Assembly: GCF_963921235.1 (NCBI RefSeq)
Contig: NC_086097.1
Location: 8,556,001-8,620,000 of the forward strand
Direction of reading: 5' to 3'
Length of the DNA: 64,000 nucleotides
From: Mobula hypostoma
Lineage: Eukaryota
Made by a program: the position numbers and the translations under genes. The notes beneath the pieces were generated by a model. That model was given only the letters and a program-made list of their open reading frames with translations. It ran no database searches and had not been told where the DNA came from. Positions 9,520 to 62,415 of the stretch are shown here, in pieces; position 1 is the first letter of the stretch, and the number at the start of each line of letters is the position of its first letter.

Positions 9520-9700
9520 CACAGTCAACAGGAATTCAAGACAAGTGGTCCCTGGTTCGAAAACGGCCGGCTCCTTGCATGCTTTCGATCCGTGCTCAGT
9601 TGAACACTGAGCCAGCAGCCCAGCCTCATAAAAAACAGACAAATGCTGGAGAAATGGGAGGTCGTCACTCAATACGCCACAAGGCGCGGAGAGGAACAAC
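9520..9700 (+). mobile_element. short tRNA/RTE SINE
   Basis: B box GGTTCGAAAAC, body homologous to 1768-1955, RTE-like tail CGCCACAAGGCGCGGAGAGGAAC. Confidence 0.6.
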
Positions 9701-16739: not shown

Positions 16740-19680
16740 ATAGAACATAGAACACAGAACATTGAACATAGAATAGGACAGCACAGTACAGGCCCTTCGG
16801 CCCATATTGTTGTGCTGACCCTCAAACCCTGCCTCCCATACAACCCCCCGCCTTAAATTCCTCCATATACCTGTCTAGTAATCTCTTAAATTTCACAAGT
16901 GTATCTGCCTCCACCACTGACTCAGGCAGTGTATTCCACGCACCAACAACTCTCTGAGTAAAAAACCTTCCTCTAATATCCCCCTTAAACTTCCCACCCC
17001 TTATCTTAAAGCCATATCCCCTTGTATTGAGCAGTGGTGCCCTAGGGAAGAGGCGCTGGCTATCCACTCTATCTGTTCCTCTTAATATCTTGTATACCTC
17101 TATCATGTCTCCTCTAATCCTCCTTCTCTCCAAAGAGTAAAGCCCTAGCTCCCTTAATCTCTGAACATAATGCATACTGTCTAAACCAGGCAGCATCCTG
17201 GTAAATCACCTCTGTACCCTTTCCAATCTGTCCACATCCTTCCTATAGTGAGGCAACCAGAACTGGACACAGTACTCCAAGTGTGGCCTGACCAGAGTTT
17301 TATAGAGCTGCATCATTACCTCGCGACTCTTAAACTCTATCTCTCGACTTATGAAAGCTAACACCCCATAAACTTTCTTAGCTACCCTATCCACCTGTGA
17401 GGCAACTTTCATGGATCTGTGGACATGTACCCAGATCCCTCTGCTCCTCCGCACTGCCAAGTATCCTGCCATTTACTTTGTACTCTGCCTTGGAGTTTGT
17501 CCTTCCAAAGTGTACCACCTCACACTTCTCCGGGTTGAACTCCATCTGCCACTTCTCAGCCCACTTCTGCATCCTATCAATGTCTCTCTGCAATCTTCGA
17601 CAATCCTCTACACCATCTACAACACCACTAACCTTTGTGTTGTCTGCAAGCCTGCCAACCCACCCTTCTACCCCCAAATCCAGGTGGTTAATAAAAATCA
17701 CGAAAAGTAGAGGTCCCAGAGCCGATCCTTGTGGGACACCACTAGTCACAACCCTCCAATCCGAATGTACTCCCTCCACCACGACCCTCTGCCTTCTGCA
17801 GGCAAGTCAATTTTGAATCCACCTGGCCATACTTCCCTGGATCCCATGCCTTTTGACTTTCTGAATAAGCCTACCGTGTGGAACCTTATCAAATGCCTTA
17901 CTAAAATCCATATAGATCACATCCACTGCACTATCCTCATCTATATGCCGGTCACCTCCTCAAAGAACTCTATCAGGCTTGTTAGACACGATCTGCCCTT
18001 CACAAAGCCGTGCTGACTGTCCCCGATCAGACCATTATTCTTTAAATGACCAGAGATCCTATCTCTAAGAATCTTTTCCAACAGCTTTCACACTACAGAC
18101 GTAAGGCTCACTAGTCTATAATTACTCGGACTATTCCTACTACCTTTTTTGAACAAGGGGACAATATTCGCCTCCCTTCAATCCTCCGGTACCATTCCCG
18201 TAGATAACGAGGACAGAAAGATCCTAGCCAAAGGCTCAGCAATCTCTTCCCTCGCACTGTGGAGCAGCCTGGGGAATATTCCATCAGGCCCCGGGGACTT
18301 ATCCATTCTAATGTATTTTAACAACTCCAACACCTCCTCTCCCTTAATATCAACATGCTCCAGAACATCAACCTCACTCTTATTGTCCTTACCGTCATCA
18401 AGTTCCCTCTCATTAGTGAATACCGGAGAAGTATTCATTGAGGACCTCGCTCACTTCCACAGCCTCCAGGCACATCTTCCCACCTTTATCTCTAATCGGT
18501 CCTACCTTCACTCCTGAAATCCTTTTGTTCTTCACATAATTTGAAGAATCCCTTGGGGTTTTCCTTTACCCTAATCGCCAAGGCCTTCTCATGCCCCCTT
18601 CTTGCTCATCTCAGCCCCTTCTTAAGCTCCTTTCTTGCTACCCTATATCCATCTGATCCTTGCTTCCTAAACCTCATGTATGCTGCCTTCTTCCACCTGA
18701 CTAGATTTTCCACCTCACTTGTCACCCATGGTTCCTTCACCCTACCATTCTTTATTTTCCTCACCGGGACAAATTTATCCCTAACATCCTGCAAGAGATC
18801 TCTAAACATTGACCACGTGTCCATAGTACATTTCCCTGCAAAAACATCATCCCAATTCACACCTGCAGGTTCTTGCCTTATAGCCTCATAATTTTCCCTG
18901 TCCTCTCTGATTCTATCCTTTTCCATTTTAATGCTGAAGGCCAGGATGTGGTGGTCACTGTCCCCCGCTGAGGGATCTGTGACCTGACCCAGTTTGTTAC
19001 CTAATACTAGATCTAGTATGGCATTCCCCCTAGTCGGCCTGTCAACATACTGTGACAGGAGTCCATCCTGGACACACTTAACAAACTCTGCCCCATCCAA
19101 ACCCTTGGAACTATTCAGGTGCCAATCAATATTAGGGAAGTCAAAGTCACCCATGATAACACCCCTGTTATTTTCGTACCTTTCCAAAATCTGCCTCCAA
19201 ATCTGCTCCTCTGTATCTCTGCTGCTACCAGGGGGCCTATAGAATACCCTCAATATAGAGTAACTGCTCCCTTCCTGTTCCTGACTTCCACCCATACTGA
19301 CTCAGAAGAGGATCCTGCTACATTACCCACCCTTTCTGTAGCTGTAATAGTATTCCAGACCAGAAATGCCACGCCTCCTCCCCTTTTCCCCCTCCTCTCT
19401 ATCCCTTTTAAAGCACTGAAATCCAGAAATATTGAGAATCCATTCCTACCCTGGTGCCAGCCAAGTCTCTTAATGGCCACTCCATCATAATTCCACGTAT
19501 GTATCCAAGCTCTCAGTTCATCACCTTTGCTCCTGATGCTTCTTGCATTGAAGTACACACACTTTAGCCCTTCTACCTTACTGTCTTTACACTGTTTATT
19601 CTGCTTTTCTTTCCTCAAAGCCTCTCTGTATGTTAGATCTGGCTTTACTCCATGCACTTCTTTCACTGCTGTATCGCTCC
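16740..19680 (-). mobile_element. CR1 LINE, nearly complete frameshifted ORF2 (APE + RT)
   Basis: YFNARSI, GDFDFP, LDLVL, KSPGPDGI, SGVPQGSALGPLLF, LADNTK and RPHLEYC motifs, with a (TTCTATG)n tail. Confidence 0.95.
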
Positions 19681-48680: not shown

Positions 48681-48920
48681 CACAAAGTGTGGACTCTCTG
48701 ACTTAGGGAGAAAAATTAAGAAGGGTCTATATTTTTCAAATCTATAGTTCTAAAGGTGGTGCAAGAACTGCACATGGGTCTATCTGTTCACAAGTTGTTG
48801 AATAGAAGGGCATGTTGATAGAGTGGTAGCAACATTTATTGGCTCCCAAAAGATATTGAAAGCATAGACTAGAAATGCAGGAAACTGTGGAATATGTACA
48901 GAATACCGGTTGGGGGAGCA

Positions 48921-49440
48921 TGAAGTGCCCACGGAGGGGGTAGCACGTCTGGTGAAGGGGCTTGTTGTGTCCATTCTGGGGCCACTCACTCATGTTTGTT
49001 TCCGACTGGACAGTCAGCTCCCACCCATGCTTGAAGCAGCTGTTAGCATATAACAGTGGCCACACCTTGGTATACCACTTCGATAGTTGAGCTAAAGCAG
49101 GTGAGGGTAACTGGCGAGCCTCATACCCCAGTGTCATAGGGGCACAGCAGTGCTAGTATGTGAAATCAGCTCTGGTGGACGGGGTGAATGAGATCTAGAG
49201 TGAGATTTAACGGCCAGGAAGGTGGTACCGCAATGCTTTCTGGAGAGTGAAGGGCAGGACAAGGCACAGGTGACGGTCGTCCACTGCAACCAAGGAAGAT
49301 CCCAGTTTCTGATGCTTGTTCATACCACTGGACCTGGACTTTTGAGGTTGAGAATGGAACTGCTCCTGTGCAACAGCTTTTCCACTTAAACATTCTCCTG
49401 CACAGATTTCCTGTCATTGTCGGACATGATGGACAACCAG
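48921..49440 (+). mobile_element. non-coding RTE-related retroposon, family B (older relative) with HDV-like relic
   Basis: Colinear with 60306-61002 (GGAGGGG..GCAC.TCTGGTG, GGCCACAC, TAAA.CAGGTGAGGGTA, CTAG.ATGTGAA, AACGG.CA.GAAGG.GGT, CCACTGGA, CACTTAAA). Confidence 0.65.
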
Positions 49441-58015: not shown

Positions 58016-60305
58016 CTCAATATTAATTCAACTTTGCATGTTGGACTCATGAACTGTTTCAAACTTAAGAAGTCACCATTTATATTTATGTATCCCTTCA
58101 GTAGCCAAATGAAAAATCTTCCTCATTATTCAGGTCAAATGGTGTCAGTTATTGCACTGTTAACACCTTATTTCAGAACCAGCTCCTCAGAGCCCTGTGA
58201 ATCAAAGATCTTGAAGTTGAAATAATTGTTCTCTGATTTATTTATGACATAATGGAGAGCTGTTGCAAAGTTTAACAAAGAAATCTCATTATATTCGCTG
58301 ATCCAGTGCTTAAACCCAGAATCTCAGAGGGCAGCCACTGTTGTTAAGGAAGCTTATATTAAAATCCTAGATGGCACATGCAGTCATTTCAGATAAAAAG
58401 TTCAACTTTATTATCATTTCAACCATAAACATGTATTCCCCCAAAAAGAAACAATGATCCTCCAGACCAAAGTGCACAACACAGTTCATATAACTCACAC
58501 GTAACAGATAAGTAATATTACCACAAATATATTAACAGATAATAAAGTGCATTTACAATACTAGCTAAAACGCTAATGGTATAACACTACTGGCGCTACA
58601 TATATGATGAGAACTGGGTGGTGGTCATGTACATTTCTAAGCTCCACGTACATATCCAAGAGCCTCTTAATCTGACCATGTCACACACTCACCACTTTCT
58701 GCATAAAAAACTTACCCCTGACATCTCCTCTGTACCTACTTCCAAGCACCTTAAAACTGTGGCCTCTCATGTTAGCCATTTCAGCCCTGGGAAAAAGCCT
58801 CTGACTATCCACACAATTAATGCCTCTCATCATCTTATACACCTCTATCAGGTCACTTCTCATCCTCCGTTGCTTCAAGGAGAAAAGGCCAAATTCTCTC
58901 AACTTATTCTCATACGGCTGCTCCCCAATCCAGGCAATGTACTTTTAAATCTCCTCTGCACTCTTTTTATAGTTTCCACATCCTTCCTATAGTGAGGTGA
59001 CCAGAACTGAGTGAGCATACTACTCCAAGTGGGGTCTGGCCAGGGTCCTATATAGCTGTAACATTATTTCTTGGCTCTTGAACTCATTCCCACGGTTGAT
59101 GAAGGCCAATTCACAGTATGCCTTATTAACCACACAGTCAACCTGCCCAGCAGCTTTGAGTGTCCTATGGACTCGAACCCCTAGATCCCTCTGATCCTCC
59201 ACACTGCTGAGTCTTACAATTAATACTATAGCCTGTCATTATATTTGACCTACCAAAATGAACCACCTCACACTTATCTAGGTTGAATTCCATCTGCCAC
59301 TTTTCAGCCCAGTTTTGCATCCTATCAATGTCCCGCTGTAACCTGTGACAGCCCTCCACACTATCCACAACACCCCCAACTTTTATGTCATCAGGAAATT
59401 TACTAATCCATCTCTCCGCTTCCTTTTCCAGGTCATTTATAAAAATCACGAAGGGTAGGGTCCCAGAACAGATCCCTGAGGCACACCACTGGTGACCGAC
59501 CTCCATGCAGAATATGACCCATCCACACTTTGCCTTCTGTGGGCAAGCCAATTCTGGATCCACAAGGCAAGATCCCCTTGGATCCCATGCCTCCTTACTT
59601 TCTCAATAAGCCTTGCATGGAGTACCTTACCAAATGCCTTGCTGAAATCCATATACACTACATCTACTGCTCTACCTTCATCAGTGTGTTTAGTCACATC
59701 CTCAAAAAATTCAATCAGGCTCGTATGGCATGACCTGCCCTAGGCAAAGCCATACTGACTATCCCTAATCAGATTATGTCTTTTCAAATGCTCATAAAAC
59801 CTGCCTCTTACAATCTTTTCAAAAAACTTGCCCACCACTGAAGTCAGACTCACCAGTCTATAATTTTCTGGGTTATCTCTATTCTCTTTCTTGAACAGGG
59901 CAACAACATTGGAAACCCTCCAATCCTCCGGTACTTCTCCTGTCTCTATTGATGATGCAAAGATCATCACCAGAGGCTCAGCAATTTCTTCCCTTGCTTC
60001 CCACAGTAGCCTGGGGTATATCTTGTCTGGTCCTGGTGACTTATCCAACTTGATGCTTTCTAAAAGCTCCAGCACATCCTCCTTCTTAATGTTTATATGC
60101 TCAAGTTTTTCACTCCACTGTAAGTCATCCGTACAATCATCAAGATCCTTTTCCGTAGTGAATACTGAAGAAAAGTATTCATTAAGTACCTCCGCTACCT
60201 CCTCTGGTTCCATACACACTATTCCCACTTTCACACTTAATCTCATGTCTTATCCTCTTGCTCTTCACATACTTGTAGAATGCCTTGGGATTTTCCTTAA
60301 TCCTG

Positions 60306-61002
60306 TAGGGGTGTATGGGGTGTCAGGGAGGGGTGCACCTCTGGTGGGGGAACATGTCGCGTCCTTTTCTAGGCGGTTAGTCCACCTTTGGTCCCCACCT
60401 GGCAGTCAGTTCTCACCTGTGGCTCCTCGTAGCTGTTTGCATGCGTCAGCGGCCACACTCCGGGCAACGGCTCCAACAAACCGGTTAAACCAGGTGAGGG
60501 TAGCCGACGGGTCTCAAACCCTCAGTGAGATAGGGAGTTGTCTATCCTAGCATGTGAAGACAGACTCCGGCAGACTGAGCGGACGAGACCAATGGAAGGT
60601 TCAACGGTCAAGAAGGCGGTCTCTGCAAGCGTCGTGGAACGTGTGGAGCACGACAAGACACAGAAGATGTCCTGGTCATCCACTGCGCCTAGTCCCATCT
60701 TCAGGCATCTCAACTCTTGTCTTGCCACTGGATCCAGATGGGAATTGGGAAGAGAGAGCTGACGCTGTGCAACTCTCCATCACTTAAATCCAAAACAAGC
60801 GTTCGTCTCAACAGCATAAATCACCATCTGGAGGCAAGTGGCTTCAGCGCTGGACTTCAGGGTGAGTGGTCCCGAGTTCGAATCCAGCCGGCTCCCTTGC
60901 ATGCTTTCCATCCGTGCTGGGTTAAGCATTGAGCTAGCAACTCAACCTCGTAAAAAAAAAGTACTAATGGGGTTGAAGTCTTCATCGATGACTATGGATG
61001 AA
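60306..61002 (+). mobile_element. non-coding RTE-related retroposon, family B, full length
   Basis: 11-bp TSD CCTTAATCCTG at 60295-60305 and 61003-61013. Contains a nested tRNA/RTE SINE at about 60828-60960. Confidence 0.85.
60308..60500 (+). ncRNA. HDV-like ribozyme fold at the 5' end of family B (C75-equivalent is T in this copy)
   Basis: P1 GGGGTGT(60308-60314 or 60317-60323)/ACACTCC(60455-60461); P2 CTCACCTG(60412-60419)/CAGGTGAG(60491-60498); P3 GGC(60421-60423)/GCC(60452-60454); L3 TCCTCGT; GGGCAAC(60462-60468); P4 CGG/CCG; J4/2 G-T-T-A-A. Confidence 0.8.
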
Positions 61003-62415
61003 CCTTAATCCTGCTCGCCAAGGCCTTCTCATGGCCCCTTCTGGTTCTCCTAATTTCATTCTTAAGTTCTTTCCTGCTAACCTGATAATTTTCTAGATCT
61101 CTATTGTTACCTAGTTTTGTGAACCTTTCGTAAGCTTTTCTATTTTTCTTGACTAGATGTTCAACTGCCTTTGTACACCACGGTTCCCGTACCCTACCAT
61201 CCTTTCCCTATGTCATTGGAATGTACGTATGCAGAATGTCACGCAAATATCCCCTGACCATTTGTCACATTTCTGATGTCCATTTCCCTGAGAACATTTG
61301 CTCTCAATTTATACTTCCTAGTTTCTGCCTGATAGATTCATATTTCCCCTTACTCCAATTAAACGCTTTCCTAACTTGTCTGTTCCTGTCCCTCTTCAGT
61401 GTTATGGTAAAAGAGATAGAATTGTGATCACTATCTCCAAAATGCTCTCCCACTGAGAGACACCTGACCAGGTTCATTTGCCAATGCAGTACCAGATCAA
61501 GTACATCCTCTCCTCTTGTAGGCTTATCTACATATAGTGTCAGGAAACCTTCCTGAACACACCTAACAAACTCCACCCCATCTAAACCCCTTGCTCAAGG
61601 GAGATGCCAATCAATATTAGGGAAATCAAAATCTCCATTTGCGACAACCCTGTTATTATTGTACCGTTGCAGAATCTGTCTCCCTATCTGCTCCTCGATG
61701 TTCCTGTTACTATTGGGCAGCCTATAAAACACACCCCGTAAAATTATTGACCCCTTCTTGTTTCTAACTTCCACCCACAGAGACTCAGTAGACAATCCCT
61801 CCATGACTTCCCCCTTTTTTGCAGCGTTTCACTATCTCTGATCAACAGTCCCACATCCCCACCTCTTTTGCTCCCCTCCCTGTCCTTTCTGAAACATCTA
61901 AAGCCTGGCACTCTAAGTAGCCATTCCTGCCCCTGAGCCATCCAAGTCCCTGTAATGGCCACCACATCATAGCTCCAAATACTGATCCACGCTCTAAGCT
62001 CATTTGCTTTGTTCATGATACTCCTTGCATTAGAATAGACACATTTCAAACCATTAGTTTGATTGCATCCCTTCTCTATCACCTGCCTATCCTCCCTCTT
62101 ACGTTGCCTACACACTTTCTCTATTTGTACCCCAAGCGCCCCCTCTCTGTCTCTTCAGTTTAGTTCCCACCCCCCAGCAATTCTAGTTTAAACTCTCCCC
62201 AATAGCCTTAGCGAATCTCCCTGCCAGGATATTGGTCCCCTTCGGATTCAAGTGCAACCCATCCTCTTTGTACAGGTCACGCCTGCCCCAAAAGAGATCA
62301 CAATGATGCAGAAATCTGAATCCCTGTCCCCTGCTCCATTCCCTCAGACATGCCTTTACCCTCCAGCTCACTCCATTCCTATACTCACTGTCGCGTGACA
62401 CAGGCAGTAGTCCTG

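Follow-up and report, generated by a model that had tools for sequence, protein, structure and literature searches.

The question raised by this stretch of Mobula hypostoma DNA (the window: 64,000 nucleotides of contig NC_086097.1, positions 8,556,001 to 8,620,000 of the forward strand) is whether the retroposon inserted at its positions 60306-61002 begins with a self-cleaving RNA, as an earlier note had proposed. Judged from its sequence, 60308-60500 is a mutated copy of a ribozyme of the hepatitis delta virus (HDV) type, with the nested double-pseudoknot fold and predicted cleavage just 5′ of G60308 (G1 hereafter). We consider it probable that this copy belongs to an HDV-like ribozyme family heading a non-coding hybrid retroposon; our confidence in the fold itself is higher than in the mechanism as a whole. 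In the textbook view, promoter-less retrotransposons are released from host transcripts by an HDV-like ribozyme at their 5′ end, as in R2, RTE, Baggins and L1Tc elements; for non-autonomous elements that exploit this device, most descriptions come from Drosophila ribosomal DNA (rDNA) and from trypanosomes.

The 697-bp stretch 60306-61002 reads as one insertion, bracketed by an 11-bp target site duplication (TSD), CCTTAATCCTG. The features that define it are as follows.

60295-60305, + strand: left copy of the TSD, CCTTAATCCTG, read directly; the empty paralogous site is uninterrupted here
60306-60307, + strand: TA, two extra bases between the TSD and G1, read directly
61003-61013, + strand: right copy of the TSD, CCTTAATCCTG, read directly
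18519-18602, + strand: paralogous empty target site in another copy of the host long interspersed nuclear element (LINE), uninterrupted across the site

The first G of P1 thus stands 2 nt beyond an 11-bp TSD, exactly as had been claimed. The intervening TA probably represents untemplated 5′-junction bases, by analogy with the 5′-junction variation of R2 (PMC3774820). The flanks of the insert belong to a minus-strand LINE fragment with a weak RVT_1 match (E = 3.4e-5, under the Pfam cut-off). In contigs from 4/4 public sequencing runs, many paralogous copies of this LINE skip exactly 708 bases (697 + 11) across the insert. With its TSD and empty site, 60306-61002 has the features of a retroposon insertion, and its non-coding character is borne out: the element has no Pfam match and no conserved open reading frame (ORF), its only long frame (60522-60779, minus strand) not being kept in a distant relative, L001.

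From G60308 onwards, every HDV-type helix is present in canonical order, P1-P2-P3-L3-P3′-P1′-P1.1′-P4-J4/2-P2′, and the ribozyme of the window copy (c1) spans 191 nt.

60308-60314, + strand: P1 5′ strand, GGGGUGU; pairs with 60455-60461 (7 bp, one G.U); predicted cleavage 5′ of G60308
60315-60411, + strand: J1/2, a structured, P1.2-like domain of 97 nt that folds as a long multi-helix hairpin (folding; pair counts)
60317-60323, + strand: second GGGGUGU, which with ACAGUC (60402-07) forms the basal helix of the J1/2 hairpin
60412-60419, + strand: P2 5′ strand, CUCACCUG; 8 Watson-Crick bp with 60491-98 and a wobble extension to 60410
60421-60423, + strand: P3 5′ strand, GGC, one unpaired base after P2; invariant in all copies with letters there
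60424-60431, + strand: L3 core, UCCUCGUA, including UCCUCG at 60424-29 (read directly; run contigs; relatives)
60432-60450, + strand: extra hairpin within L3 (GCUGU...ACAGC in the family, with a U-U mismatch 60436/60446 here); 95.5% of cells paired
60452-60454, + strand: P3 3′ strand, GCC, with the P1 3′ strand following without a gap (read directly; pair counts)
60455-60461, + strand: P1 3′ strand, ACACUCC (family majority ACACCCC) (read directly; run contigs; relatives)
60462-60467, + strand: P1.1 3′ strand GG and J1.1/4, within GGGCAAC at 60462-68 (read directly; relatives)
60468-60483, + strand: P4, 3 bp in the window copy versus 6 bp and a CGAC loop in the family (run contigs; relatives; pair counts)
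60484-60490, + strand: J4/2, GUUAAAC; the catalytic-C position, 60485, is U in the window copy (read directly; contigs; relatives)
60491-60498, + strand: P2 3′ strand, CAGGUGAG; pairs with 60412-19 and extends to 60500

Direct reading thus upholds the earlier description of a complete set of HDV-fold elements in order, with a 7-bp P1, an 8-bp P2, UCCUCG in L3 and GGGCAAC after P1; the latter two we take to be identical to the genomic HDV ribozyme. Parts of that description need amendment. J1/2 does fold as a hairpin, but its length is 97 nt and not about 90 nt; P3, L3 and P4 are present, but L3 is no simple loop and P4 has only 3 bp in the window copy. HDV-like ribozymes typically have a short L3 of 7-8 nt, with P1.1 formed between its second and third positions and the two bases that follow P1′. 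Here P1.1 is formed by C60425 and C60426 with G60463 and G60462, and L3 reaches 28 nt (UCCUCGUA, the hairpin 60432-50, then G) because the hairpin separates the L3 core from the P3 3′ strand. The core UCCNNGUA and its CC/GG pairing are present in c1 and in three relatives (L001, L004 and L005), but the conserved 19-nt hairpin brings L3 to 28 nt. The direct passage from the P3 3′ strand to the P1 3′ strand is likewise found in these three relatives and in c2, a second copy in the window.

This architecture is close to that of known ribozymes of the type. In R2, the P1 strands lie 23 to over 700 nt apart, only the catalytic C and four other positions are rigidly conserved, and the cleavage site is set by annealing of P1 next to L3/P3, with a P1 3′ strand of ~7 nt directly after the P3 3′ strand (PMC3774820). 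The Mobula element shares with R2 and HDV ribozymes the helix order, the catalytic-C position in J4/2 and the distant P1 strands (PMC3774820), and CUCCUCGU in P3/L3 of the window copy overlaps the conserved R2 motif CCUCCUCGUGG (PMC5035012). It differs from them in its 28-nt L3 with a hairpin (versus 7-8 nt), in not being site-specific and in matching no HDV-type Rfam model. A J1/2 helix (P1.2) that closes next to P1 and P2 is also found in drz-Agam-2 of RTE elements (Webb 2016, PMC4908430), unlike which the J1/2 hairpin here is a 90-nt, multi-helix structure in which a second copy of the P1 sequence serves in the basal helix.

Both P1 strands are in fact duplicated, GGGGUGU-AU-GGGGUGU on the 5′ side and ACA(G/C)UC plus ACAC(U/C)CC on the 3′ side, and the duplication is kept in L001 and L005. 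From these duplicated strands, together with an alternative pairing in the minimum free energy (MFE) fold of L005, it seems possible that the RNA adopts either an active or an inactive conformer, each excluding the other.

Is the window copy representative of its family? We compared it with contigs from four public runs, X1 (organism A), X5 (B), X10 (D) and X16 (A, guessed to be RNA), aligned to 60150-61150 at 80% likeness. Between 2,129 and 25,425 contigs aligned per run, LINE-flank contigs included; the shares below are depth-weighted contig counts and not copy counts. The majority substitutions among the differences listed, with the minority letter A at 60427, are given with their depth in X1.

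60485, T>C: 70809/70944 (68 contigs); restores the catalytic C; in the other runs, X5 473207/474519, X10 3876/4018 and X16 2751/2769
60459, T>C: 8565/9308; P1 G.U becomes G-C
60473, C>T: 9856/9935; P4 mismatch becomes a pair
60480, A>G: 41322/41649; P4 mismatch becomes a pair
60475, A>G: 8533/9930; P4 loop
60446, T>A: 92536/92749; closes the U-U mismatch, an extra pair in the L3 hairpin
60405, G>C: 246749/247663; extra G-C pair in the base helix of J1/2
60410, T>C: 240568/242845; P2 wobble becomes C-G
60427, T>C: 172431/203176; variable L3 position
60427, T>A: 25083/203176; variable L3 position
60370, T>A: 81755/81865; J1/2 loop

X5, X10 and X16 agree with X1 in direction for the tabulated letters. 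Ten listed majority substitutions fall in 60308-60500, of which six improve pairing, one restores the catalytic C, three lie in loops (60427 varies within the family as C, A or U) and none breaks a pair. The family letters at 60473 and 60480 extend P4 to 6 bp, capped by a CGAC loop. The catalytic C at 60485 takes more than 96% of the depth in 4/4 runs, and it is also present in 4/4 other sequence copies (c2, L001, L004 and L005). The family consensus therefore has C where the window copy has T, with C at 49092 in the second copy, both letters being as first reported; P1, P2, P3 and P4 are all kept or improved. C75U inactivates HDV ribozymes, and the U at the position of the catalytic C, with the damage to P4, marks the window copy as a dead member, the fate that had been predicted for it.

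The family is large. Sequence words of the element occur in runs of seven coded organisms (A-G, from seven studies) with shares of 0.19-0.45, and the module 60320-60795 is very abundant in organisms A and B and less so in D. Thousands of family contigs come from three coded organisms, and many copies have flanks of their own, the sequences upstream of c1, c2, L001 and L005 being unrelated. No run recorded as RNA is listed among those with words of the element, and the RNA status of X16 is only guessed, so that its module contigs give no firm sign of expression.

More distant copies carry the argument further. A profile of the ribozyme run over the window with nhmmer finds c1 and c2 only.

48912-49395, + strand: c2, a second, older copy of the 5′ module with ~68% identity; C retained at 49092, with decay in the L3 core and in parts of P1/P2

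In c2 two P4 pairs are compensatory, while the L3 core and three P2 pairs have been lost. Outside the window, a 19-letter pattern over J4/2 and P2 returned five metagenome loci and four prokaryote-genome loci, which were checked by BLAST. Three of the nine (L001, L004 and L005) are true relatives, ~70% identical and from two metagenome contigs, with L004 and L005 as two copies on one contig and L001 on the other; over 60308-60793, L001 and the window share 70% identity. The other two metagenome loci, L002 and L003, are chance matches, and none of the four prokaryote-genome loci (0/4) is a relative. Earlier pattern scans of metagenome and viral contigs had returned 0 loci.

In all three relatives P1 is a perfect 7 bp (GGGGUGU/ACACCCC), P3 and P1.1 show no change, P2 persists apart from a single C-G pair that has become U.G, and J4/2 reads GCUAAAC with the catalytic C (3/3). 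Their L3 core is UCCAAGUA, in which only two middle positions differ, and the stem of the L3 hairpin is kept with a different loop. P4 reads CCGCCU-CGAC-AGGCGG in the relatives against CGGCUU-CGAC-AAGCCG in the family, which amounts to two compensatory double changes, with a U.G intermediate in L004. Across the alignment, 86.9% of cells are paired, compared with 34-50% when the partners are slid by 1-3 columns, and double changes, affecting both partners of a pair, occur in 8 pairs (three of P4 and five of the J1/2 hairpin) compared with 0-4 when slid. Double changes thus affect 3/6 pairs of P4, whereas in P1 and P2 only one partner of a pair varies. Of 500 shuffles, one reached the observed covariation score, 0.163.

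These comparisons bear directly on whether the resemblance could have arisen by chance in a single repeat copy. Our pairing-only descriptor was written post hoc, after the candidate had been seen. It requires a 7-bp P1 in which no more than one pair is G.U, a P3 of three Watson-Crick pairs abutting the P1 3′ strand, a P1.1 of two pairs, a Watson-Crick P2 ending 0-1 nt before P3, a J1/2 of at most 110 nt and an L3 of 6-30 nt. With a P2 of at least 7 or at least 8 bp, its sole match on both strands of the window is the 60308 locus. The looseness of such a descriptor (long J1/2, long L3) favors chance, and at a P2 of at least 6 bp it finds 29 loci in 25 locally shuffled windows, ~1.2 per window. 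These fall to 11 and 3 at P2 lengths of at least 7 and at least 8 bp, and to 2, 0 and 0 at the three thresholds once the U...G rule for L3 is added, so that the 8-bp P2 with this rule is met in 0/25 shuffles. The descriptor evidence alone is suggestive; the decisive evidence is comparative, for the family letters and the three distant relatives improve the fold and do not erode it. Chance is effectively refuted, and we give it almost no weight.

The 5′ ends of the copies are informative as to function. Homology among c1, L001 and L005 sets in at the G1 run, in which L001 carries an additional G, and upstream of this run c1, c2, L001 and L005 are unrelated; the prediction that 5′ ends would cluster at G1 thus holds for these copies. 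Among the contig pieces listed, one from X1 (record 1) starts at 60307 with 201 unlike bases before it and one from X10 (record 9) ends at 60308 with 240 unlike bases beyond it. No pile of contig ends is seen at 60306-08 among the begin/end and loose-end rows listed. A common start at G1 is what cleavage 5′ of G1 would predict; as a sequence pattern, it is also compatible with a transcription start at G1.

This ambiguity leads to another reading, in which the conserved fold is a non-cleaving 5′ leader (a promoter, an internal ribosome entry site (IRES) or a protein-binding site) and G60308 the transcription start. The lack of a matching Rfam model and the departure of L3 from known HDV-like ribozymes would both fit such a leader, as would the conserved and structured domain downstream, and the 5′-terminal sequence of L1Tc/NARTc can be promoter and ribozyme at once (PMC3383444). 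Yet all the catalytic hallmarks are kept at ~70% identity, namely the C of J4/2, the U...G of L3, the CC/GG pairs, a 3-bp P3 abutting P1′ and a 7-bp P1 starting at the first base, and a leader devoid of catalysis has no reason to keep exactly this set. We regard a non-cleaving leader as improbable.

The points that weigh against a ribozyme concern both the fold and the data. L3 carries a 19-nt hairpin, for which we found no counterpart in the parts of the literature consulted and which departs from known HDV-like ribozymes. Rfam searches at E values up to 10 gave no HDV-type model on 60200-61100 (one chance microRNA (miRNA) match) and none among the 20 matches on the intact relatives L001 and L005; at the gathering score, the whole window has 0 matches. 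The MFE stability is no better than that of shuffles (z = 0.09 for the whole region, -1.30 and -0.62), a measure that is uninformative here because the fold is a pseudoknot, and the MFE fold of L005 pairs the first GGGGUGU with ACACUC instead of with the P1 3′ strand. The pair counts come from five sequences, two of them near-identical, on a structure taken from c1, and P3 and P1.1 are uninformative for covariation because they never vary. On the side of the runs, contigs lose rare variants, depth-weighted contig counts are not copy counts, and 115 further differences lie outside the listing from which the majority substitutions were taken. The long J1/2 and the L3 insert are a likely explanation for the missing Rfam match. 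The HDV-like ribozyme remains, to our mind, the reading that best accounts for the comparative data.

What does the ribozyme head? It is the first part of a structured module of ~490 nt, which is followed by parts of a different origin, including a core of the short interspersed nuclear element (SINE) type.

60499-60808, + strand: second conserved structured domain, closed by GUGAAG / UCAC-containing strands (homology; RNAalifold)
60838-60957, + strand: tRNA-like SINE core ending in an A run, after a short linker; common to 9531-9635 and 1776-1880
60958-61002, + strand: 3′ tail whose last bases read ...ATGGATGAA; it does not terminate in poly(A) (read directly)

Homology among c1, c2 and L001 continues for ~300 nt past the ribozyme and fades at ~60795-60808, the counterparts of the second domain being 60499-60808 and 49106-49395 of the window and 619-930 of L001. 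RNAalifold, with three sequences only, gives a closed multi-helix domain in which 19/71 pairs are kept via changes on both sides, and no Rfam family matches 60499-60808. This downstream domain is a lead modeled on three sequences only, and an IRES-like or reverse transcriptase (RT)-binding role would be a guess. At 60757 the window copy is without five bases (GTGAG) that are present in L001 and in a minority of the family (X1, 843/75359 depth).

The SINE core has a GGTTCGAAtcc-type T-arm motif, then a conserved ...GAGCTAGCAAC... box and the A run. It is abundant in all four runs, including that of organism D, where the ribozyme module is much rarer; ARAGORN finds no tRNA on the element. No LINE in the window shares the 3′ tail of c1, tail and core being shared with two other SINE copies there, and no LINE ORFs follow c2.

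The element is therefore a hybrid of a ~490-nt ribozyme module and an unrelated tRNA-like SINE tail, for which there is a clear precedent. In R2 SIDEs and R2/R1 hybrid SIDEs, the R2 ribozyme lies directly upstream of the R1 3′ end and cleaves in vitro (PMC3414825). Like these Drosophila elements, the one described here is short and non-coding, starts with an HDV-like ribozyme with a large J1/2, joins it to the 3′ end of a different retroelement (in the SIDEs, the TSDs match the partner's type) and differs between relatives mainly by compensatory changes in helices (PMC3414825). Unlike SIDEs, which as described in that source are confined to 28S rDNA and cut from an rRNA co-transcript, the Mobula family is dispersed and very abundant; its target is a LINE fragment, its 3′ partner a tRNA-like SINE core with a tail, and it has a second conserved domain of ~300 nt and the L3 hairpin. 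Another comparable system is L1Tc/NARTc of Trypanosoma cruzi (L1TcRz, Pr77; PMC3383444, PMC3185411), a dispersed non-LTR element and its non-autonomous derivative, both of which start with an HDV-like ribozyme that defines the RNA 5′ end. L1TcRz is compact (the first 77 nt) and has an internal promoter, in contrast to the 191 nt, 97-nt J1/2 and L3 hairpin found here.

The hybrid nature leads to two readings, an amplifying hybrid family like the R2/R1 SIDEs or one template-jump chimera among many. In the latter, the ribozyme is real and the insertion a one-off product that founded no amplifying SINE-like family: a LINE reverse transcriptase would have started on SINE RNA, jumped to an abundant ribozyme-processed module RNA and run to G1. 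There is documented precedent in R2, whose reverse transcriptase can jump from one template to small RNAs (PMC3414825). Unrelated sequences follow the module in different copies: in c1 the SINE tail, in L001 an ORF for a UCH-type peptidase, and in L004 a fragment of Peptidase_M16. In X1, moreover, depth drops ~20-fold across the module-SINE junction (7719 and 4113 for 60796-60863, against ~57,000-280,000 in most module bins, one having 38,731, and ~93,000-132,000 in the SINE core). On the other hand, the junction bins still hold thousands of summed depth where single contigs are ~5-100 deep; many copies therefore seem to share the junction, as expected of an amplifying hybrid like the R2/R1 SIDEs, with the proviso that contig depth is a poor copy count. 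The L004 junction, too, lies inside the module and not at its 3′ end. A one-off chimera is thus possible, and we hold it to be the less likely of these two readings.

The other fusions are instructive in their own right. In L001 the module is followed by 87 nt and then by an intronless UCH-type peptidase frame, P0001 (Pfam UCH, 3.9e-41). In L004 (93-467) the module breaks off ~230 nt in, and a Peptidase_M16 fragment follows (1.5e-20). From their sequences, both arrangements look like chimeric retrocopies headed by a ribozyme. A broader and rather unlikely reading takes the ~490-nt unit as a portable, two-domain ribozyme leader, composed of a ribozyme with a three-way-junction L3 and the closed domain and fused time and again to unrelated 3′ partners in two or more distantly related hosts. 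Such a unit would do more than serve a single LINE, for it would seed both new families of retroposons and retrogenes headed by the ribozyme. The ribozyme would then give the fusion RNAs a defined, uncapped 5′ end, and the second domain might serve RT recruitment or cap-independent translation.

Based on the above data, we propose the following mechanism for active members of the family of ribozyme-headed hybrid retroposons. The module, which on this view needs no promoter of its own, would be transcribed by read-through within a longer host or repeat transcript. Its J1/2 hairpin, closing next to P1 and P2, may act as does the J1/2 helix of drz-Agam-2, and the ribozyme would cut just 5′ of G1, thereby fixing the RNA's 5′ terminus. 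Target-primed reverse transcription, by an enzyme presumably from a LINE and starting at the borrowed 3′ tail, would then copy this RNA. The resulting insertions would start at G1 and carry TSDs, in the present case an 11-bp duplication with two untemplated bases in a LINE-fragment target. The window copy has since lost its catalytic C (U at 60485) and three P4 positions and can therefore no longer cut.

Ribozyme-headed non-autonomous elements are already known as a kind (R2 SIDEs, NARTc), and this family is an oddly built example. It differs in being dispersed, very abundant and present in several species, in the L3 hairpin, in the duplicated P1 within J1/2, in the second domain and in its varied 3′ partners. 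The L3 hairpin adjoins the active site; if the ribozyme is active, it widens the known tolerance of the HDV fold and marks a natural site for engineering. A module fused to different 3′ partners offers a test case for the origin of hybrid retroposons. Current ribozyme annotation misses the family because no Rfam model detects it. A word search of the open-access literature, whose scope left aside the original R2, RTE and genome-wide HDV-like descriptions, found no description of the family or of an L3 helix.

Some further observations concern L001 and the rest of the window. The UCH-type ubiquitin-hydrolase frame of L001 (P0001; 1010-1219) comprises 336 amino acids, apparently without the usual C-terminal His box. 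Just upstream of the L001 ribozyme, 257-394 and 403-425 form a near-perfect long inverted repeat, on which 19/20 of the sub-threshold Rfam matches in L001 and L005 fall. The 23 bases in front of the ribozyme are found again at 308-330, and the only Rfam matches on the hairpin are sub-threshold ones to miRNA precursors. This repeat may be a foldback or an assembly artefact.

A motif scan of the window for another L3...GGGCA arrangement gave nothing convincing. A composite element at ~1040-1950, which may be the 'family A' of the earlier note, finishes with the SINE core described above and a tail of related sequence (...ATGGATTAAA) and has a different 5′ part of ~700 nt; the descriptor finds no HDV-like fold on its plus strand. 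In the tail of this element, a weak descriptor match on the minus strand (2001-1924; P1 GGCTTTT/AGAAGCC, P2 of 6 bp) is at chance level.

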